Origin: Escherichia phage vB_EcoM_ESCO8
Reading direction: 5' to 3' (one strand)
Length of the DNA stretch: 64,000 nt
Sequence record: OM386653.1
The notes below the pieces were generated by a model. The model was not told the origin of the DNA. It worked only from the letters and a program-made list of their open reading frames with translations, and did no database searches. The translations under genes and the position numbers were made by a program. The first letter of the stretch is position 1. Each line of letters begins with the position of its first letter. Below are positions 8,886 through 33,498 of this stretch, piece after piece.

Positions 8886-9158
8886 TTAAAGCAAAAACGC
8901 TACATCTTGCGCTTTTAGTGTAGTGTCGATCATTTTCGGGCTTTTATAATCCACAAAGCGCGCGGTTTTTTCAATAACGAAGCCGAGATAATCTTGTTTA
9001 TTGAAATTACATTCTTTTTTAAATGTTTCCCGTGCCACGGTGATCGCTGCATCCAGGGATAAACGCCCATCAATATTGATGTTAGCGAAAGATCCGCCAC
9101 CGCGCATAGGTTTACCAGTGATGCCAGCTACGATCATTGATGCGCTATATGATGCCAT
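8886..9158 (-). CDS. hypothetical protein
   Basis: ORF track 90 aa; leader hairpin 9181-9200 upstream. Confidence 0.55.
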   Translation of the reverse strand: MASYSASMIVAGITGKPMRGGGSFANINIDGRLSLDAAITVARETFKKECNFNKQDYLGFVIEKTARFVDYKSPKMIDTTLKAQDVAFLL

Positions 9159-9210
9159 GATTATTTCTCTCTTCTGTTATGAGCGGCACTATTGCCGCCC
9201 TATGTGATAC

Positions 9211-9238
9211 ATCTTATCAGATTAAAAAACGTTGTCAA
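9211..9238 (-). promoter_or_regulatory. sigma70-like early promoter with leader hairpin
   Basis: Minus strand TTGACA-16nt-TAAGAT followed by hairpin GGGCGGCAATAGTGCCGCTC (9181-9200). Confidence 0.5.
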
Positions 9239-9246
9239 GAATATTT

Positions 9247-9342
9247 TTAAAAGATAATAACCGCTACTACAATCCAAAATGGAACGGCTAGAATGATAGC
9301 GTTAATCGTTCCAACCGTCAAGCTGTTTTCTTTCTTGATCAT
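9247..9342 (-). CDS. small hydrophobic peptide (31 aa)
   Basis: Manually read ORF MIKKENSLTVGTINAIILAVPFWIVVAVIIF; first ORF downstream of promoter 9470-9498. Confidence 0.3.
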   Translation of the reverse strand: MIKKENSLTVGTINAIILAVPFWIVVAVIIF

Positions 9343-9469
9343 CGTTATCAACCTTTTATAAGTAATGTTATTGTGACGGTGGATTGTGGAGATCCTCACC
9401 TTTGCCCGTCCTGCATTGCGCCCTCCTTTTGTTTATTGTCGTTGTGCCTCGCCCCCCTCGACAAGATGA

Positions 9470-9498
9470 ATAATACGCTACCAGGTGAGGAACGTCAA
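9470..9498 (-). promoter_or_regulatory. near-consensus sigma70 promoter (leftward, head of early gene array)
   Basis: Minus strand TTGACG-17nt-TATTAT; GC-rich ~120-nt leader follows. Confidence 0.5.
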
Positions 9499-9532
9499 CC
9501 CCTTTTTTAATCTTTTTTCATTTCTTTTTTGC

Positions 9533-9562
9533 TTGCTATCTATAAAGGAAAGGGGCTATTAT
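9533..9562 (+). promoter_or_regulatory. sigma70-like promoter (rightward)
   Basis: TTGCTA-18nt-TATTAT upstream of ORF starting 9610. Confidence 0.4.
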
Positions 9563-9609
9563 CTTTCTACCGCGCCAACCAGGGCGCACATCAAAGAAAG
9601 GGCGATACC

Positions 9610-9876
9610 ATGACAAATACTACTTTACACCTCATGCACTCATTAGGCTGGCAAGGCGGCACGGTGCACCAGGTAGCAAGCGCAACGGGCTTAAAGGTTG
9701 AAACCGTTCTCAACCTGGGCGATCATAAGGTGGAAGAAATAGATCATTTTGATACGTTCGCAAATGGTTATCTATGGGCTTGCAGTGGCGGCGGGGAAAG
9801 CAAGATCCCGCCAGGGGCGCGGGGCGACATGTATTTTTGGCTAGGTGTCCTATCCTGGCAAGAAAACAAAAAATAA
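9610..9876 (+). CDS. hypothetical protein (88 aa) in GC-rich island
   Basis: ORF track frame 9529..9876 trimmed to ATG with AAGGG-type RBS; local GC content clearly above surrounding AT-rich genes. Confidence 0.4.
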   Translation: MTNTTLHLMHSLGWQGGTVHQVASATGLKVETVLNLGDHKVEEIDHFDTFANGYLWACSGGGESKIPPGARGDMYFWLGVLSWQENKK

Positions 9877-9878
9877 TC

Positions 9879-9907
9879 TTGACAAGCCCAGGGATCGGGC
9901 TTATACT
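9879..9907 (+). promoter_or_regulatory. near-consensus sigma70 promoter (rightward)
   Basis: TTGACA-17nt-TATACT; spacer contains inverted repeat AGCCC/GGGCT; no obvious CDS downstream before repeat region. Confidence 0.5.
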
Positions 9908-10140
9908 GTTTTACATACAGAAGAGGAAGCGCCACCCCCACGGCGTAAAGGCGGGGCTAACATACCAGGGCACTACTGGTTGGAAGGTTGATCGCCGGTA
10001 GCTCGTCTAAAATAAATTTGTAAAGAAATGTAAAGATAAAAATAATCGCTTGCTTTTGTTGTTGGTTATGCTATTCTTATTGTATGGCGAGGGGACACGG
10101 GAGCGCGAGACAAACACCGCCCCTGCGCGTTATTCTCTAA

Positions 10141-10250
10141 ATGAGAAAATTCTCATTTGCTAATGATTCTCATTCTCTTACTGAGAATGATTATCACTTA
10201 CATACTTAAATGATAATGATTCTCATTTACAAATGAAAATGATTATCATA
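10141..10250. repeat. Cluster of Fur-box-like / ATGAGAA-TTCTCAT palindromic repeats
   Basis: Repeated units AATGATTCTCATT, GAGAATGATTATCA, AATGATAATGATTCTCATT, AATGAAAATGATTATCA resembling GATAATGATAATCATTATC. Confidence 0.45.
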
Positions 10251-10269
10251 CGCACACCCATAAAAACAC

Positions 10270-10480
10270 GAAATTGAACTTTTCATTTTTGATTTTTCTA
10301 CGGAAAAAGGCAAAAAACTTTAAATAAACTGGGGAATTTTTAAAAAATTGAAGTTTTCATTTTCAAAATCTGGATAGAAATACGTACAAAAACTTTAAAT
10401 AATTTTGACCAAACTTGAACTTTTCATTTTCAAAATTTGTACCCAAAAATCTGTAAAAACTTTAAATAATTTTGTCCTTT
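10270..10480. repeat. Three tandem ~70-bp direct repeats (iteron-like)
   Basis: Unit TTGAAC/G-TTTTCATTTTCAAAAT...AACTTTAAATAA recurs at 10274, 10348, 10415 with 67-74 bp period. Confidence 0.6.
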
Positions 10481-10688
10481 TTATAAAAATGATTTTACTG
10501 TTCTGTTATAAGTAGTAGTTAAGAGATAGTATGCCTTTTAAAGATCAGATACCATAGTCAAACAAACAAATTAAATACTTTATTAACAGAGTACAGAATA
10601 ATATTTACTCTGGATATATTATTCAGAGGGTGGATTTCCGTACATGAAACCCACACCCCTTTTTATAAAAATAAAAATTTTCAAAATA

Positions 10689-11240
10689 TCAGGAAATATC
10701 AGATTGTGCTTTTAGATAAACAGCAAGGTCTGTATGCCATTTTCCTAAAAGATTTTGTCCTTTCCAACAGTCCTTATTTTCCACATCACGATCCCACATT
10801 CCCATTTTGATACCATAAATAGAATCATAAGGGCTTGCCTCTACGAACTCCTTATCTGCGTAAGCGATAAGTTTATTTTTGAGATCTTCATTTTGTGTGT
10901 ATTTAAGATACAAACCACGCTTGACAATCTTCTCCCGTAAAGAAGTCCAAGTAGCTTCATCGTAATCTTTAACTAATCTACCTAGTCGCTTATAATATGC
11001 CTGTTCTTTTTCTCCTGTATATCTTAGATCTCCGGTTAAAATAGAAGATGCAATGTTGTAATCATAAAACAAACATGCTTTTCTCCACATCATATATTGT
11101 TCCACACAAGTAAATTCAACAGAACTTGTAATAGAATTATTATACTTGGGAGCTAAAGGTTCAATAAAAGATGATAGATACCAGTTGCTAAATTCATCTT
11201 TTGCCGAGAAGAAGAACACATACTTATCAGTAATCCGCAT
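10689..11240 (-). CDS. NADAR-domain protein (YbiA-like)
   Basis: 183 aa; motifs FFFS..EFSNWY, VEQY..W.KA, and C-terminal GIKMGMW...G.N.LGK.H align with E. coli YbiA-type NADAR pattern. Confidence 0.65.
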   Translation of the reverse strand: MRITDKYVFFFSAKDEFSNWYLSSFIEPLAPKYNNSITSSVEFTCVEQYMMWRKACLFYDYNIASSILTGDLRYTGEKEQAYYKRLGRLVKDYDEATWTSLREKIVKRGLYLKYTQNEDLKNKLIAYADKEFVEASPYDSIYGIKMGMWDRDVENKDCWKGQNLLGKWHTDLAVYLKAQSDIS

Positions 11241-12413
11241 TTACATCTCCTTACTGTATACTAATTTGCCACCATATTGTGTAATAATTTTTTGAAGATT
11301 TTCCAAATCAGAAACACTTACTGTTTCTGTATAACCATCTTTCAACTCTCTTGCCGTTAAAATACCAGTTTTTAATTTTTTCTTTATAGCTCTTTCAGCA
11401 GCCCTACATTGTTTCACTGTGCTAAAATCATATAAACAAATACGCCCCATAAAAAACAGATTACGGCTCTTTTGACCGTTTAATCGTCTATCGCTATCTT
11501 TAGATATACCAAACTTAAGAGCAACTATAATATCATTATCTTTAACAATATTAATATATAATTGCTGTTGATTATGACCAGCACACTGTGGACAACCTTG
11601 ACCGAGGCTTAATAAATTACGAGCACTCCCTATCTGCTCACCATGCACAAGACAAAGATATTTAAACTTACCTATAGAAGAGGGTTTGGTAATCCAATCT
11701 ACCCAGACATACCCTTTCCCTTCTACTTCCTTTTTTACCCTATAGGTGATCTGGTCTTCTGTATACTGATAGTTCCCACAACGACACGGAATATACCCTT
11801 GTTTAAGGTTATGTCCTGCAGAGTAAAATTTACCATCACAAACACCTGCTTGAACATATTCATCATGGGAGCAAACAGGACACTCAACCATCCATACTGC
11901 ATCACGCTTGTTACGTTTCCCTGTATTGGTGAAGATAGTGCCTTCCTTAAATTCCCCTGTAGAAAAGAAATCTGCAATATGTTGATCGTCGGACATTGTT
12001 TGTCTCTCCCTCTTACATTGTGGACAACCGCTACCACGTTTAAAATTGTTAATACTTGTAGTATCCCATTTATTACCACAATGACACAACAAATCAAGTT
12101 TTGTTTTATTCCCTTTCCATTCTCCCACGTACCCTAACACCTGATACCCCCTCTTCTGTGCTATCTCTTCCAAGATCGGCAATTCTGTTTCCCATGTTAA
12201 CGGCTTCTTACCAGAACAGATAGGACAACCACGTCCCTTCTTAAAATCATTAATGTTCGTGGTGTTCCACTCTCCATGTTTAGGACAAGATAGCTTAAGT
12301 TTAGTCTTGTTCCCTTTCCATTCACCAACATAACCCAGGATTTGAATATTGCGATTTTTAGCAAGGGGTGTTAATTCTTCTTTATATTGTTCCCATGATT
12401 TTGGTGCTGTCAT
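11241..12413 (-). CDS. T5orf172 (GIY-YIG-like) domain protein with tandem zinc-ribbon modules
   Basis: 390 aa; three repeats of GYVGEWKGNKTKL..C..HG.W.TT.IN.FK.G.GCP.C followed by C-terminal LYINIV..GIS...RRL segment typical of T5orf172. Confidence 0.55.
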   Translation of the reverse strand: MTAPKSWEQYKEELTPLAKNRNIQILGYVGEWKGNKTKLKLSCPKHGEWNTTNINDFKKGRGCPICSGKKPLTWETELPILEEIAQKRGYQVLGYVGEWKGNKTKLDLLCHCGNKWDTTSINNFKRGSGCPQCKRERQTMSDDQHIADFFSTGEFKEGTIFTNTGKRNKRDAVWMVECPVCSHDEYVQAGVCDGKFYSAGHNLKQGYIPCRCGNYQYTEDQITYRVKKEVEGKGYVWVDWITKPSSIGKFKYLCLVHGEQIGSARNLLSLGQGCPQCAGHNQQQLYINIVKDNDIIVALKFGISKDSDRRLNGQKSRNLFFMGRICLYDFSTVKQCRAAERAIKKKLKTGILTARELKDGYTETVSVSDLENLQKIITQYGGKLVYSKEM

Positions 12414-12450
12414 CTATTACTCCTCTTATTAAATCTGGCATCAATACAAG

Positions 12451-12476
12451 AAAACCCGCCGGAGCGGGTTTTTATT
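12451..12476 (-). terminator. Rho-independent terminator (bidirectional)
   Basis: AAAACCCGC-cgga-GCGGGTTTT stem-loop with flanking T/A runs, 3' of ATPase gene. Confidence 0.65.
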
Positions 12477-12487
12477 TGCTGGCTTAC

Positions 12488-13615
12488 TTAAAACACGCTT
12501 GCCAAAGTTGCACCATTGGTGATAGTTGGTTCCAGAACAATACGGAAAGAATCTTCTGGATCATCACTAAACACAACGATTTTACCGCCTGTAATAAGAT
12601 CTGCTTTCATTTTTGTCGCATTCAATGGAATTCGAGCATCTCCTTCATCATCAAAAACCACGTAAGAGCTATTAGCAAGGGCTTCTTTAGAGTCTGCATC
12701 ACTTGGAGATGACAAGTACACGTCTAGTGTGCACGAGCCACCTAAAAAGATTGCAGGTGTGAAGTTATGCCAACTAGATACCCAGCTAACTTTCTGAAGT
12801 TTCCCATTAATAACAACGCTGCTGATATCCCACTTATTACCACCACCCAAAGAAACGCCCATCATAGAGATGCATTCTTTAAAGGATAAATCAGGGTAGA
12901 AATTAAGTTCTTCTACTATACCTTGGATCACATCAAAGGACAACTCTAAACTTACATCCCAAAGCCTTTGGAAATTATCAAAGTGTGCTTTGTTATCCAG
13001 GTTTTTATCTAAATAGTCAATCATAGTTTCTAGTGAGATTTTATCATAATTAAAATTATAAAACACACGACTAGGACGATTTAGAAAGAATTCAGAGATA
13101 AAGCCACTGTTTTTAGTTAGAATAAACAGTTTATTACCACTGCCAGTACCATCTAACAAAGTGAGAAGTGCTTCTTGATCTTGTTTCTTCTCATACACTT
13201 TATCAAACTCGTCAAAAATAATCACTGCTTTGTCGGTGATCTTGCTAATAAGTTCAATGAAATTAGCATCGCTGTAGGCTTGAGTAACCATAATAGTTGG
13301 AATACCTTCTTCTACAAGGTCACGACTAATGAGTTTGGCTAACATAGTTTTACCACTACCCTTAGTTCCTGTCAGAAGCAATCCTGTATTTTTACCTTGT
13401 GCACTCCGGCGATGGAATGTACGGATAACGTGATTTGCTCGTTTTTCTGTTTCACCATACAGAACATCCGGTACACCTGTCAGATTACCACGGCTTAAAA
13501 AATAATTGCCAAGGGGATCACGACTAACAGTATAGAATCCAGGTGGAAGATAGTTAGATTCCACGCCCATATCTTTATTTACACTTACAATATCACCATA
13601 AATCGTGTATTTCAT
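12488..13615 (-). CDS. AAA-type ATPase (paralog A)
   Basis: 375 aa; Walker A GTKGSGKT, Walker B IIFDEFDK; paralogous to 28181..29341. Confidence 0.7.
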   Translation of the reverse strand: MKYTIYGDIVSVNKDMGVESNYLPPGFYTVSRDPLGNYFLSRGNLTGVPDVLYGETEKRANHVIRTFHRRSAQGKNTGLLLTGTKGSGKTMLAKLISRDLVEEGIPTIMVTQAYSDANFIELISKITDKAVIIFDEFDKVYEKKQDQEALLTLLDGTGSGNKLFILTKNSGFISEFFLNRPSRVFYNFNYDKISLETMIDYLDKNLDNKAHFDNFQRLWDVSLELSFDVIQGIVEELNFYPDLSFKECISMMGVSLGGGNKWDISSVVINGKLQKVSWVSSWHNFTPAIFLGGSCTLDVYLSSPSDADSKEALANSSYVVFDDEGDARIPLNATKMKADLITGGKIVVFSDDPEDSFRIVLEPTITNGATLASVF

Positions 13616-13626
13616 TTTAACCCCTT

Positions 13627-14064
13627 TTATTTTTGTTGAGATGAACGAATTAAATCAGCAGCAAATTCAATCAGATACACTTTTGGTGCAATAATGATTT
13701 TTAGCCAATCAAAATTCGAAAAGAAAATAACAAATCCTAAAAAGAAAAAGAAAGCACAGACAACAAGGCCAACAATAGGTAAAGCAGATACTTCACCATA
13801 GCGATCTCGTGACCACAGGCATTCTTTATCTTTAATTGCTTTTACGAGGTTCCGCACAGCAATAAAAGTAATAAACATAAAGCAAATACTAAAAAGTTGC
13901 CATAAACCTGCGGATACTGCTTTCCACACTAATAGTTGATGGATTACTTCTGGAATTTGTTGTTTTCCAAACTCTACAACATCACTCATTGTTTGAATAG
14001 TGACGTTAACCATGTTCAGAAGTACATCCGTTGCTTTATCTGCGATTGCGTTTGTTTTACTCAT
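13627..14064 (-). CDS. hypothetical membrane protein
   Basis: ORF track 145 aa; multiple hydrophobic helices. Confidence 0.55.
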   Translation of the reverse strand: MSKTNAIADKATDVLLNMVNVTIQTMSDVVEFGKQQIPEVIHQLLVWKAVSAGLWQLFSICFMFITFIAVRNLVKAIKDKECLWSRDRYGEVSALPIVGLVVCAFFFFLGFVIFFSNFDWLKIIIAPKVYLIEFAADLIRSSQQK

Positions 14065-29748: not shown

Positions 29749-30405
29749 ATGACTGTTAAGCATATTTCTTTTGATGTATGGAATACTCTTATTACTGCTA
29801 ATCCTTTGTATGCAGAAGAACGCAACAAGGTTATTGCCGAGTATGCCTCTTGTTCTGAGGTAGAAGCAGCTACCGTATATAAAGAGGTAAAAACTCTCCT
29901 GGATTTAAAAGCAGAAAAAGGCATTTGTGGAACATCTAGAAATGCTTGGGAAACACTTTCTGCTCGTTTGAACATTGATCTTGATAAAGTAGATGGGTTA
30001 AAAAGAGACTGTTTAGCAATGTTTATAAAACATCCTCCAACATTAAACCCTGAACTTTGCAAGAAGTTGGAAGAGCTAAGTTCAACCTATTCTTTGAGTA
30101 TTAAAAGCAATACTAATTTTGTACCTGGTAGTTTTTTAGCTGTATATTCTGGCTTGACAAAATTACCATTCGACTTTATGCATTTTTCTGACGAGTTTTG
30201 CTTGTGTAAACCAGATCCTAGGTTTTTTAAACTCTCTTTTGATGAAATGGTAACGTTTGATCTCGCACCAGAGGAGATCTTACACGTTGGAGATAGTTTG
30301 ATCTATGATGGAAAAGCTGTTGACATAGGGATGAAGTTCTGTCATATTATTAATCCAGAAGACTTGTTGGCTAAACTTAAAAAAGAGGAACTTATTAATG
30401 CGTAA
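29749..30405 (+). CDS. HAD-superfamily hydrolase (phosphatase-like)
   Basis: Motif I FDVWNTL near N-terminus, motif IV VGDSLIYDGK near C-terminus; 8-nt overlap with next gene. Confidence 0.55.
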   Translation: MTVKHISFDVWNTLITANPLYAEERNKVIAEYASCSEVEAATVYKEVKTLLDLKAEKGICGTSRNAWETLSARLNIDLDKVDGLKRDCLAMFIKHPPTLNPELCKKLEELSSTYSLSIKSNTNFVPGSFLAVYSGLTKLPFDFMHFSDEFCLCKPDPRFFKLSFDEMVTFDLAPEEILHVGDSLIYDGKAVDIGMKFCHIINPEDLLAKLKKEELINA

Positions 30406-31255
30406 TCAAATTCAACATTTTGCTAATACTTTTACTAACCTGAAGGAAGCAAAATTTAACATTGCAGATTATTCCAAGCTAAAGTTTGGTAGTAACCAGG
30501 CAGCAAAAAGAATGGGGCGCATTCTGGCTGAAAGTTTCTTTTCCAAGTATGAAGAACGACTGGTAAATGAAAGTTTTGTTGTTATTCCATCTCCATATAA
30601 CTATGTGAAAAATGCAGCTACAGTGTTATCTGAACATTTTGTAGATCACCTCAACTACCTAATCTCTATCAAAGGAGGTAAAGCAGTGGAGTGGGATATC
30701 GTTCATCGTAAAGTGAGCTATATCAATGATTATGGATTTCTTAGCAAAGAAGATCGTAAGGCTTTGATCGATGGTGACACTTTCTCTATCAATCGTGATT
30801 TCTGGGGTAATAAAACTCTGATTTTCATTGATGATGTTAATATTACAGGAACGCACGAAGAAAAACTTATTGAAATTTTAGACAAAGAAGGTGTTGAAAA
30901 CGATACGTTTTTCCTGTACTTTGCAAAGTATGAAGGTACAGAAGCCAATACCGAAGCTGCACTTAACTTCAACTATATCAATAACCTGGCAGCTTTTATT
31001 AAAATGATTAAACAAGAAACTGATGCTAAATGTTTGGTTCGTCCTATTAAGTATCTAATGAGTCAAAGCGAAGTTGATTTTAAAATTGCACTTTCACAGC
31101 TTCCTTTGTATTATGTAGAACAACTGTTCTTTGGTTGCCTTGCAGAAGGCTACAATAACATTGAAAAATATAAAGAGAACTTTGATTTCCTACGTCAATT
31201 TTTTGAAAGCAACATTATCAACAAATCTAATGTTAAAGGGGATTATTATGTCTAA
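30398..31255 (+). CDS. Phosphoribosyltransferase-like protein (divergent type I PRTase)
   Basis: 285 aa; LIFIDDVNITGTHEE resembles PRPP-binding loop of type I PRTases; translationally coupled to HAD and macro genes. Confidence 0.45.
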   Translation: MRNQIQHFANTFTNLKEAKFNIADYSKLKFGSNQAAKRMGRILAESFFSKYEERLVNESFVVIPSPYNYVKNAATVLSEHFVDHLNYLISIKGGKAVEWDIVHRKVSYINDYGFLSKEDRKALIDGDTFSINRDFWGNKTLIFIDDVNITGTHEEKLIEILDKEGVENDTFFLYFAKYEGTEANTEAALNFNYINNLAAFIKMIKQETDAKCLVRPIKYLMSQSEVDFKIALSQLPLYYVEQLFFGCLAEGYNNIEKYKENFDFLRQFFESNIINKSNVKGDYYV

Positions 31256-31964
31256 TAAAGTAATGACTTTCGGAGATCCTATCACCAATATTACAGAAAA
31301 AGATTTTGGGCGTGTAGCAACAGATAAAGATGGTGTCTTAAGAATTCGTGTACAAGGTATTACAGCACAGGATGAATATGCTGTGTATGTTTCAGGTCTT
31401 AACTATATTGATGATCGCATTACACAAAACTTTGCACTGATCGGTGGTGTAGAGAAAATGTATTGGGAAGATGAAATTGTAACAAGTTATCCGGCAGGTA
31501 TCATTGAGGTATACGGTGATCTTTTAGCAGCAGCCGAGAGAGGCGATATAGACGCTATAGCACACTGCTGTAACTGTTTTTGCACTATGGGTAGTGGTAT
31601 TGCACCAAAAATTAAAAGCAAGTGGCCTGGTGCGTTTAAAGCAGATTGTGCCACTAAACATGGTGATTATAAAAAATTAGGTACGTTTACCAAATATATA
31701 GAAAACAATTTGACAATTTATAATTTATATGGACAATATGGTTATAGTCGTCGTGAGGAAGGTAAGCGTGACCTGAATTATGAAGCTATCTACAATGCGT
31801 TAGATAGTATGGGAGACGATGTTGTATCTTCAGGCGGTAAAATTGTAGGTTTACCAATGCTTGGTTGTGGTTTGGCTGGAGGTTCTTGGAGTATTGTAAA
31901 ACTTATGATCGAAGAAACTCTAGTAAACAAAGGTTTAAATGTAATTGTTTACAAACTGAAATAA
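31248..31964 (+). CDS. Macro-domain protein with unknown N-terminal domain
   Basis: ATG preceded by AAAGGGG; C-terminal half has macro-like IDAIAHCCNCFCTMGSGIA and LPMLGCGLAGGS motifs; ORF-track start 31131 rejected. Confidence 0.55.
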   Translation: MSNKVMTFGDPITNITEKDFGRVATDKDGVLRIRVQGITAQDEYAVYVSGLNYIDDRITQNFALIGGVEKMYWEDEIVTSYPAGIIEVYGDLLAAAERGDIDAIAHCCNCFCTMGSGIAPKIKSKWPGAFKADCATKHGDYKKLGTFTKYIENNLTIYNLYGQYGYSRREEGKRDLNYEAIYNALDSMGDDVVSSGGKIVGLPMLGCGLAGGSWSIVKLMIEETLVNKGLNVIVYKLK

Positions 31965-32520: not shown

Positions 32521-33498
32521 ATGCAACTGGGTTTCCCAATTATTGATGTGGTTGTTTTAGTGGGTATTTTAGTCTTGTCGATTTGTATTGACTTCTTTGG
32601 ACACAGAGAAAACAAAGAAATTTCATTTAAATCTGCAATTGGCTGGTCAATTTTCTGGATTGGGGTATCATTAGCCTACTATGGTTTTGTATACTTCCAA
32701 CACGGTGCTGATTTTGCGAGCTTGTTCTTGAGTGGGTATGTGTTGGAGAAATCTCTTTCTGTAGATAACTTAGTAGTATTTGTAGCAGTATTCGCAAGTT
32801 TTGGTATTAAAAGCACACACTTGCAGCACAAGATTCTACTTTGGGGTATTGCAGGTGCGATTGTCTTCCGAGGTGTGTTTGTAGCAGTAGGTACTTACTT
32901 GTTGAGTTTGGGCTGGTATGTTAATATCTTCTTCGGTGCTGTCATCCTTTTCTGTGCGGCTAAAATGGTATTCGCTGGAGATAATGATGCAGAAGTTGAT
33001 TACTCTAAACACTGGGCTACTCGCATTGTTCGTAAGCTGTTCCCTGTATCTGATCAGATGGATGGTGAGAAGTTCTTCACAATCAAAAATGGTGTTCGTG
33101 TAGCAACTCCGGCTCTGGTTTGTGTGTTTGTAATGGAAATGGTTGACGTAATCTTTGCAGTAGACTCTGTTCCAGCAGTAATTGCAGTGACACAAGAACC
33201 TCTGCTGGTGTTCTCTTCGATGCTCTGTGCAATCTTAGGTTTACGTGCTCTGTTCTTTGTTCTTAGTGTTGCACTGAAGTATTTGGTTCATCTGGAGAAA
33301 GCAGTTATCGTAGTCCTGGTGTTTGTGGGTGTAAAACTGATGTATCACCCGTTTGCAGAAACTCTGCACGCAAAAGTGAGTTTCCTGCCAGCACACATTG
33401 ACCCGACGATCAGTATGTATATTGTGTTAGGTACTCTTGGGCTGGGTGTTCTTGCAAGTTTAATCTTCCCTGAAAAAGAAGACCAGGCTGTTGCTTAA
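32521..33498 (+). CDS. TerC-family integral membrane protein
   Basis: 325 aa, multi-TM; conserved EKSLSVDNLVVF and DVIFAVDSVPAV motifs. Confidence 0.75.
   Translation: MQLGFPIIDVVVLVGILVLSICIDFFGHRENKEISFKSAIGWSIFWIGVSLAYYGFVYFQHGADFASLFLSGYVLEKSLSVDNLVVFVAVFASFGIKSTHLQHKILLWGIAGAIVFRGVFVAVGTYLLSLGWYVNIFFGAVILFCAAKMVFAGDNDAEVDYSKHWATRIVRKLFPVSDQMDGEKFFTIKNGVRVATPALVCVFVMEMVDVIFAVDSVPAVIAVTQEPLLVFSSMLCAILGLRALFFVLSVALKYLVHLEKAVIVVLVFVGVKLMYHPFAETLHAKVSFLPAHIDPTISMYIVLGTLGLGVLASLIFPEKEDQAVA

Follow-up and report, generated by a model that had tools for sequence, protein, structure and literature searches.

A NADAR gene of a phi92-like Escherichia phage is very probably an orphan anti-DarTG1 factor allelic to AdfN-Bas60

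Results

A full-length NADAR gene ends a leftward transcription unit

We analysed a window of Escherichia phage vB_EcoM_ESCO8 (sequence record OM386653.1), by which we mean the whole stretch of 64,000 nucleotides, and describe here a gene within it that encodes a protein of the NADAR family. The product is very probably an orphan, antitoxin-like DNA ADP-ribosyl-guanine glycohydrolase that defeats DarTG1, and its gene is, by sequence, the allele carried by phage outra of the published factor AdfN-Bas60. The window belongs to a phi92-like Justusliebigvirus (Stephanstirmvirinae): across positions 9000-14000, it shares 99.9% identity with Escherichia phage outra and 94-99% with ~50 other phi92-like phages, among them the BASEL phages Bas60 (PaulScherrer), Bas61 (EmilieFrey) and Bas62 (JohannJBalmer).

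A preliminary description, made from the letters of the window alone, had placed a NADAR-domain protein at 10689-11240. We found that these coordinates coincide exactly with an open reading frame, which lies on the minus strand, a point that the description left unstated. The claim that the protein is a NADAR along its length was borne out. In the profile search that had been proposed as a check, the Pfam model NADAR PF08719 (DUF1768) scored 126 bits (cutoff 35.1; E 2.3e-36), and this match is full-length, covering residues 13-168 of the protein and positions 9-154 of the 163 in the model. TIGR02464 (109.8 bits, cutoff 73.7), phrog_1017 (E 4e-50) and the predicted fold described below agreed. 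The presence of a NADAR gene at this locus is thus confirmed, and a profile search of all six-frame segments showed this gene to be the only NADAR in the window.

The gene is the last of a leftward unit (Table 1). The TAA stop codon of the upstream gene (11243..11241) immediately adjoins its ATG, and its GGAG ribosome-binding site sits within the last codons of that upstream gene. Across five orthologues, codon differences were synonymous in 110 cases and non-synonymous in 22, indicating purifying selection. Among models of defence components, the protein matched the candidate component PDC-M42C of PADLOC (117 bits) and none of the PADLOC DarG models, while NCBIfam NF053876, the DS32_2 NADAR anti-phage protein, scored 25.9 bits, below its equivalog cutoff of 240.

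Table 1. Features of the NADAR locus and of two further regions of the window.
Feature	Position	Strand	Remarks
Near-consensus sigma70 promoter	9879..9907	plus	TTGACA-17-TATACT; opens the conserved non-coding stretch
Conserved non-coding stretch	9877..10160		near the 3' end of the NADAR gene
Four Fur-box-like 7-1-7 palindromes	10158..10248		TGATAATnATTATCA, 1-2 mismatches; within 90 bp
Three tandem-like direct repeats	10270..10477		~67 nt each; 61-81% identical; spacing 74 and 67 nt
Stable hairpin	10625..10660	minus	~30 nt after the NADAR stop; 76-nt segment folds at -20.9 kcal/mol, z -3.25
NADAR gene (adfN-type)	10689..11240	minus	183 residues; ATG start; TGA stop at 10691..10689
E134 codon	10839..10841	minus	catalytic Glu of the last beta-strand; equals PnNADAR E125, SCO5665 E167
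K54 codon	11079..11081	minus	diphosphate-binding Lys; equals PnNADAR K50, T4 AdfN K43, E. coli C7 DarG1 K95
E47 codon	11100..11102	minus	Glu positioning the distal ribose; equals PnNADAR E43, T4 AdfN E36, E. coli C7 DarG1 E88
GGAG ribosome-binding site of NADAR gene	11247..11250	minus	6 nt before the ATG; read from the sequence
CapR gene	11241..12413	minus	three CapR/zinc-ribbon repeats and a C-terminal T5orf172 domain (GIY-YIG-related); upstream gene in the same transcription unit as NADAR
Intrinsic-terminator hairpin	12451..12472	minus	AAAACCCGC-TCCG-GCGGGTTTT, then a T-rich tail; separates the AAA ATPase gene from the CapR-NADAR unit
AAA ATPase gene	12488..13615	minus	phrog_2376; Pfam and PHROG matches
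Macrodomain gene	31230..31964	plus	244 residues

The protein is nearly identical to AdfN-Bas60

The protein shares 98% identity with its Bas60 counterpart, from which it differs by three substitutions (N62S, A96D and A178T), and 99% with the Bas61 and Bas62 proteins, where one position differs. All of these differences avoid the invariant columns described below, and the three relative to Bas60 also avoid the ADP-ribose-contact columns. The Bas60, Bas61 and Bas62 genes share with the window copy the length of the product, the syntenic position, the neighbours and the phage genus. On these comparisons, the gene is effectively an allele of AdfN-Bas60, namely the one found in outra; the outra copy itself is labelled 'hypothetical protein' in GenBank.

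The function of this allele group was described by Johannesman, Awasthi, Carlson and LeRoux (Nat Commun 2025, PMC11825919), who found NADAR proteins in Bas60, Bas61 and Bas62 by DELTA-BLAST and introduced the name AdfN-Bas60 (AdfN, anti-DarT factor NADAR). They reported that AdfN-Bas60 expressed alone neutralises the toxicity of DarT1 in uninfected E. coli, and that, again alone, it lets RB69, T5 and Bas25 again plaque at full titre on DarTG1 hosts (their Fig. 5); it did not rescue T5 on DarTG2 hosts. In their tree, AdfN-Bas60 falls among NADARs that are neither YbiA nor DarG1, and the authors concluded that phages have recruited NADARs several times independently. The underlying chemistry was set out by Schuller et al. 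2023 (PMC11543638): DarT1 puts ADP-ribose on the amino group of guanine, and NADARs hydrolyse this linkage. The suggestion in the preliminary description that the gene reverses guanine ADP-ribosylation of DNA and acts against DarT is thus supported, having been shown for the 98%-identical AdfN-Bas60; the anti-DarTG1 function is, accordingly, already published and not a new finding. From genome content, AdfN-Bas60 appears to be bas60_0111, because this is the sole NADAR annotated in the Bas genomes and tblastn finds one place per record.

By tblastn, we found relatives in 724 phage records, and in 55 of them identity reaches 95% or more. Large myoviruses of Staphylococcus, Listeria, Bacillus, Enterococcus, Klebsiella and Escherichia make up most of the 724, in line with Iyer et al. 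2022, who recorded a NADAR in 27% of the myoviruses that they surveyed. Two of the records, MG065689.1 and MG065650.1, are named 'Campylobacter phage A110a' and 'B15' (host C. jejuni) and encode NADARs 98.9% and 59% identical to the window protein. Five Campylobacter-labelled records match positions 9000-14000 at the DNA level, and the host labels of these records are probably wrong.

The predicted fold has a conserved ADP-ribose-binding site

We built an AlphaFold2 model of the protein on 64 homologues (mean predicted local distance difference test score, pLDDT, 96.7; predicted template modelling score, pTM, 0.91). The model has the YbiA-like fold, an alpha-helical core with two small flanking beta-sheets, and its significant matches in the PDB were only two: the NADAR of Phytophthora nicotianae (PnNADAR, 8BAU; template modelling (TM) score 0.77) and E. 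coli YbiA (2B3W; TM 0.69/0.75). PnNADAR, a stand-alone enzyme of a eukaryote, is the closest solved structure (28% identity, profile E 5e-36); its loop and insertion elements differ from those of the phage protein.

The residues that hold ADP-ribose in the 8BAU co-crystal are E43, K50, K75, R79, W89, R93, E125, D130 and W133 (PMC11543638). Mapping these residues through HMMER alignments, with a +2 offset in the chain numbering corrected, we found that their phage equivalents are, in the same order, E47, K54, K84, R88, W98, R102, E134, D139 and Y142. Of these nine residues, which contact ADP-ribose or are catalytic, eight are therefore identical, and the ninth is a conservative change from Trp to Y142. 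Five residues (S18, E47, K54, E134 and D139) are invariant across the 64 homologues. The Ser/Glu/Lys substrate channel and the last-strand acidic residue that mark the NADAR superfamily are present as S18, E47, K54 and E134. Mutational data exist for several equivalents of these residues in other NADARs (Table 1): mutation of DarG1 K95 reduces hydrolysis (PMC11543638), mutation of E36 or K43 in T4 AdfN lowers counter-defence, and E167 of SCO5665 is essential, both E167D and E167Q being inactive.

The preliminary description had called the protein 'YbiA-type', a term that stands in part. The protein does carry Glu at the last strand (E134), and in the broad de Souza-Aravind sense, that of the older two-family scheme, it is of this type; judged by sequence, it is nearer to, and belongs to, the stand-alone 'NADAR' family of the current four-family scheme. 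The last-strand position is diagnostic among families, being Asp in DarG1 and His in T4-type AdfN, but Glu is common to the YbiA and stand-alone NADAR families and so does not discriminate between these two. YbiA sensu stricto was rejected on other grounds: the family profile gave 127 bits to PnNADAR versus 68 bits to YbiA, phmmer with the single NADAR sequence missed YbiA 2B3W at E <= 0.01, the relatives of the protein are overwhelmingly phage-encoded, and the published tree places AdfN-Bas60 outside YbiA. E. coli YbiA shares the NADAR core fold with the phage protein, but the two are only 22% identical and match by profile only, and YbiA is a riboflavin-intermediate N-glycosidase with a housekeeping role in a LexA operon.

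Assignment as a DarG1 antitoxin was likewise rejected. The gene has no DarT neighbour, E134 stands in place of Asp (D171 of E. coli C7), no PADLOC DarG model matches, and the core strand of the model begins at residue 7, leaving no DarG1-like N-terminal extension. A search of the PDB for DarG1-type chains, with phmmer and with the family profile, came up empty even at a threshold of E <= 10. DarG1 from E. coli C7 and from Geobacter/Trichlorobacter lovleyi has the same fold and carries out the same hydrolysis of guanine-N2-linked ADP-ribose, so that the phage protein would be a functional mimic of it; however, DarG1 is ~230 residues long, with a basic beta1-beta2-alpha1 N-terminal extension, a catalytic Asp and an adjacent DarT1, whereas the phage protein has 183 residues and lacks these features.

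The third candidate to be rejected was the cluster of T4 gp30.3 (AdfN-T4). We detected no pairwise similarity between the phage NADAR and T4 gp30.3 (BLASTP E = 2), and hhalign returned a weak probability of 16%, with E47 and K54 aligned to E36 and K43; in addition, residue 134 is Glu and not His. AdfN-T4, the founding phage anti-DarTG1 NADAR, is likewise an orphan phage protein with the same reaction and the same target system. It is, however, fully effective only in T-even infection, whereas the Bas60 type is effective alone (PMC11825919), and AdfN-T4, with His at the E134 position, cannot remove cytosine-linked ADP-ribose (C-ADPr).

Proposed mechanism

We propose that the protein would act as follows. 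In an infected DarTG1+ E. coli cell, DarT1 would move ADP-ribose from NAD+ to the N2 amino group of guanines in phage DNA, and this modification would block phage replication. The phage NADAR is predicted to bind the ADP-ribose with K54, K84, R88, W98 and R102 in contact with its diphosphate and adenosine, and with the distal ribose positioned by E47 and D139. E134, as the putative catalytic acid, would then permit hydrolysis of the N-glycosidic bond between ribose and guanine and so restore unmodified DNA. The target would be the modification and not the toxin, and thymine-linked ADP-ribose, the product of DarTG2, would be left in place. Because the enzyme would act on the modification rather than on the toxin, it should need no partner protein and be indifferent to the DarT1 variant that it meets.

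For the Bas60-type clade, we infer this chemical step from other NADARs, the only ones for which it has been measured in vitro. That countering DarTG1 is the main role of the protein in its native phage is likewise an extrapolation. We found no DarT or other ADP-ribosyltransferase (ART) gene beside the NADAR gene: the neighbours scanned against Pfam are the CapR/T5orf172 protein, the AAA ATPase and proteins that match no Pfam family, and the remaining reading frames nearby are short. Since no such gene is adjacent, we consider this NADAR an orphan.

Several points weigh against an anti-DarTG1 role. The equation of AdfN-Bas60 with bas60_0111 was not taken from a published accession. No assay of a purified Bas60-type enzyme has been described, AdfN-T4 alone having been purified in PMC11825919, and we found no report in the literature of a deletion in a Bas60-type phage or of the DarTG1 sensitivity of such phages. 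In one study, moreover, YbiA and T4 gp30.3 did not rescue DarT1 toxicity; because of these failures, activity on guanine-linked ADP-ribose (G-ADPr) in vitro does not by itself predict protection in vivo. Finally, related phage NADARs often lie beside genes of NAD salvage, which hints at additional or other substrates.

Other substrates

The strongest competitor to the anti-DarTG1 reading is a broader one, in which the enzyme is a nucleic-acid de-ADP-ribosylase that mainly removes G-ADPr or C-ADPr placed on DNA or RNA by toxins other than DarT1 (pierisin/ScARP-like, YarT-like or undiscovered ARTs), with DarTG1 as one facet of its work. The stand-alone NADAR and YbiA families remove both C-ADPr and G-ADPr, from DNA and from RNA, whereas DarG1 and the T4 NADAR do not act on C-ADPr, and E134 is the Glu of the broadly acting families. 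The PADLOC match to PDC-M42C, in preference to any DarG model, points the same way, and Johannesman et al. themselves raise wider targets (PMC11825919). However, E. coli is not known to have a C-ADPr or RNA-ADP-ribosylating defence of a kind reversible by a NADAR; the target of CmdT is adenine N6, and CmdT comes with an antitoxin of its own, CmdA; and the phenotype demonstrated in PMC11825919 is specific to DarTG1. We therefore think it unlikely that the broader activity is the main one.

Improbable, in our judgement, is a role on soluble ADP-ribose derivatives, by which the protein would clear low-molecular-weight immune signals or by-products derived from ADP-ribose, or feed phage NAD+ salvage, in place of repairing DNA. 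Iyer et al. 2022 argued for such a role for phage NADARs generally, and in the closest relatives beyond the subfamily (40-45% identity), found in jumbo-phage-like contigs, the gene is beside an NMNAT-like gene or near NAMPT. Their hypothesis is nevertheless older than the biochemical and genetic proof that NADARs hydrolyse G-ADPr in DNA, no NAD-salvage gene flanks the window copy, and it is DNA repair that explains the rescue from DarT1 toxicity. As a side activity such a role is possible, but the published phenotype does not call for it.

Neighbouring genes

The preliminary description had noted a nuclease-like gene and an AAA ATPase beside the NADAR gene, and both are present (Table 1). The product of the first matches Pfam CapR at 146 bits and T5orf172 at 18 bits (below the cutoff of 20), and falls in phrog_681, 'endonuclease'. 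Among near-identical phages, this protein differs mainly by having gained or lost whole N-terminal repeats, giving lengths of 325, 390, 467 and 486 residues. In the AAA ATPase, only the P-loop/AAA part (residues ~60-170) matches Pfam, and the C-terminal ~200 residues are uncharacterised; we detected no peptidase domain, despite the labels 'FtsH-like protease' and 'ATPase or Zn metalloprotease' given to this protein. The terminator between the ATPase gene and the CapR-NADAR unit folds at -16.9 kcal/mol (z -3.15), and the annotation of phage Paula records its equivalent as a bidirectional terminator. The hairpin that follows the NADAR gene probably serves as a 3'-end element or a terminator, although it lacks a clean U-tract on the minus strand.

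These neighbours had been read as signs of an anti-defence locus, and in its fullest form this idea would have NADAR act with the CapR/T5orf172 protein and the ATPase as a three-gene anti-defence module. Both genera of Stephanstirmvirinae have these genes in the order ATPase - CapR gene - NADAR, and the stop and start codons of the CapR and NADAR genes abut. In Phapecoctavirus ESCO13, however, where the NADAR is 56% identical, two extra small genes lie between. AdfN-Bas60 is sufficient alone, a strong terminator sets the ATPase apart, and a PADLOC search brought no significant match to either neighbour (nothing for the CapR gene, weak P-loop matches only for the ATPase). In other phages, the neighbours of NADAR genes are unrelated to these. 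A module of this kind is thus quite improbable, and the locus interpretation did not hold up: because AdfN-Bas60 works alone, the functional argument gains nothing from the neighbours.

The contexts of other NADAR genes are varied. In Cronobacter phage CR8, the gene adjoins an HNH endonuclease and an exonuclease. In the homologues from the longest contigs (P0111 and P0050), it lies beside NMNAT-like and GIY-YIG genes, or near NAMPT; these two contigs were considered as bacterial genomic context and rejected, as they proved to be jumbo-phage-like. Homing-endonuclease families of different kinds (HNH, GIY-YIG and T5orf172) flank NADAR genes in unrelated phages, and NADARs may travel with homing-endonuclease elements.

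The protein can hardly be a housekeeping YbiA-type N-glycosidase that destroys reactive intermediates of the riboflavin pathway: TIGR02464, which it matches above cutoff, is named 'riboflavin biosynthesis intermediates N-glycosidase', and homologues are labelled 'putative YbiA-like N-glycosidase' and 'GTP cyclohydrolase II' in GenBank, but TIGR02464 models the NADAR fold at the level of the domain, the protein is far nearer to PnNADAR than to YbiA and lies outside the YbiA group of the published tree, no riboflavin genes are nearby, and a lytic phage has no obvious need of such an activity.

A macrodomain gene elsewhere in the window

Some 20 kb from the NADAR gene, the window encodes a macrodomain protein (Table 1) that matches a PADLOC DarG model in its macrodomain part only (E 4.6e-13). 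Its relatives in the PDB are SCO6735, TARG1 and Thermus DarG, enzymes that remove thymine-linked ADP-ribose (T-ADPr) from DNA. The protein is thus a candidate orphan anti-DarTG2 factor, like AdfM of T4, and the phage may possess erasers for G-ADPr as well as for T-ADPr. Its gene stands in a cluster on the plus strand with genes at 30398..31255, 29749..30405 and 32521..33498, which comprise a ComF-like PRTase_3, a HAD hydrolase and TerC; it overlaps the ComF-like gene, and the gene for the TerC membrane protein lies ~0.5 kb downstream. This is a Ter-type 'nucleoside-like metabolite' gene set.

A more speculative extension, which we regard as possible but somewhat doubtful, is that the NADAR is a general eraser of base-linked ADP-ribose, on G and C and in DNA and RNA, and that with the macrodomain protein it would form a two-enzyme kit for every known chemistry of base ADP-ribosylation, including that of toxins undiscovered in E. 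coli.

A conserved non-coding region near the NADAR gene

The non-coding stretch near the 3' end of the NADAR gene is ~94% identical between Justusliebigvirus and ESCO13, with long runs of 100% identity, although the NADARs of the two are only 56% identical. We rejected this stretch as a structured RNA: it has no Rfam match, and its folding z-scores are unremarkable on both strands. No tRNAs and no Rfam families were found anywhere in the window. The stretch is possibly an origin-like, regulatory or recently exchanged segment.

Next to it lie the four Fur-box-like palindromes of Table 1. In the 64-kb window as a whole, five such matches were found versus 0.9 expected, and two more palindromes occur in the equivalent region of ESCO13 (L005 6017..6089). 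They could be true Fur sites, as an iron-regulated promoter or a Fur decoy, or iterons of the phage with a resemblance to such sites; a single full-text search of the literature for Fur boxes in lytic phages returned nothing relevant. The ~67-nt direct repeats occupy an AT-rich tract between these boxes and the 3' end of the NADAR gene, and some related records annotate a 'repeat_region'.

Discussion

The overall significance of these results is modest, and their main value lies in the correction of annotation: in ~55 Justusliebigvirus genomes, a gene now called 'hypothetical protein' or 'YbiA-like N-glycosidase' can be renamed 'AdfN, anti-DarTG1 NADAR'. The assignment also leads to a prediction for the biology of this genus, namely that Justusliebigvirus phages that are therapeutic candidates against E. 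coli would be insensitive to DarTG1.

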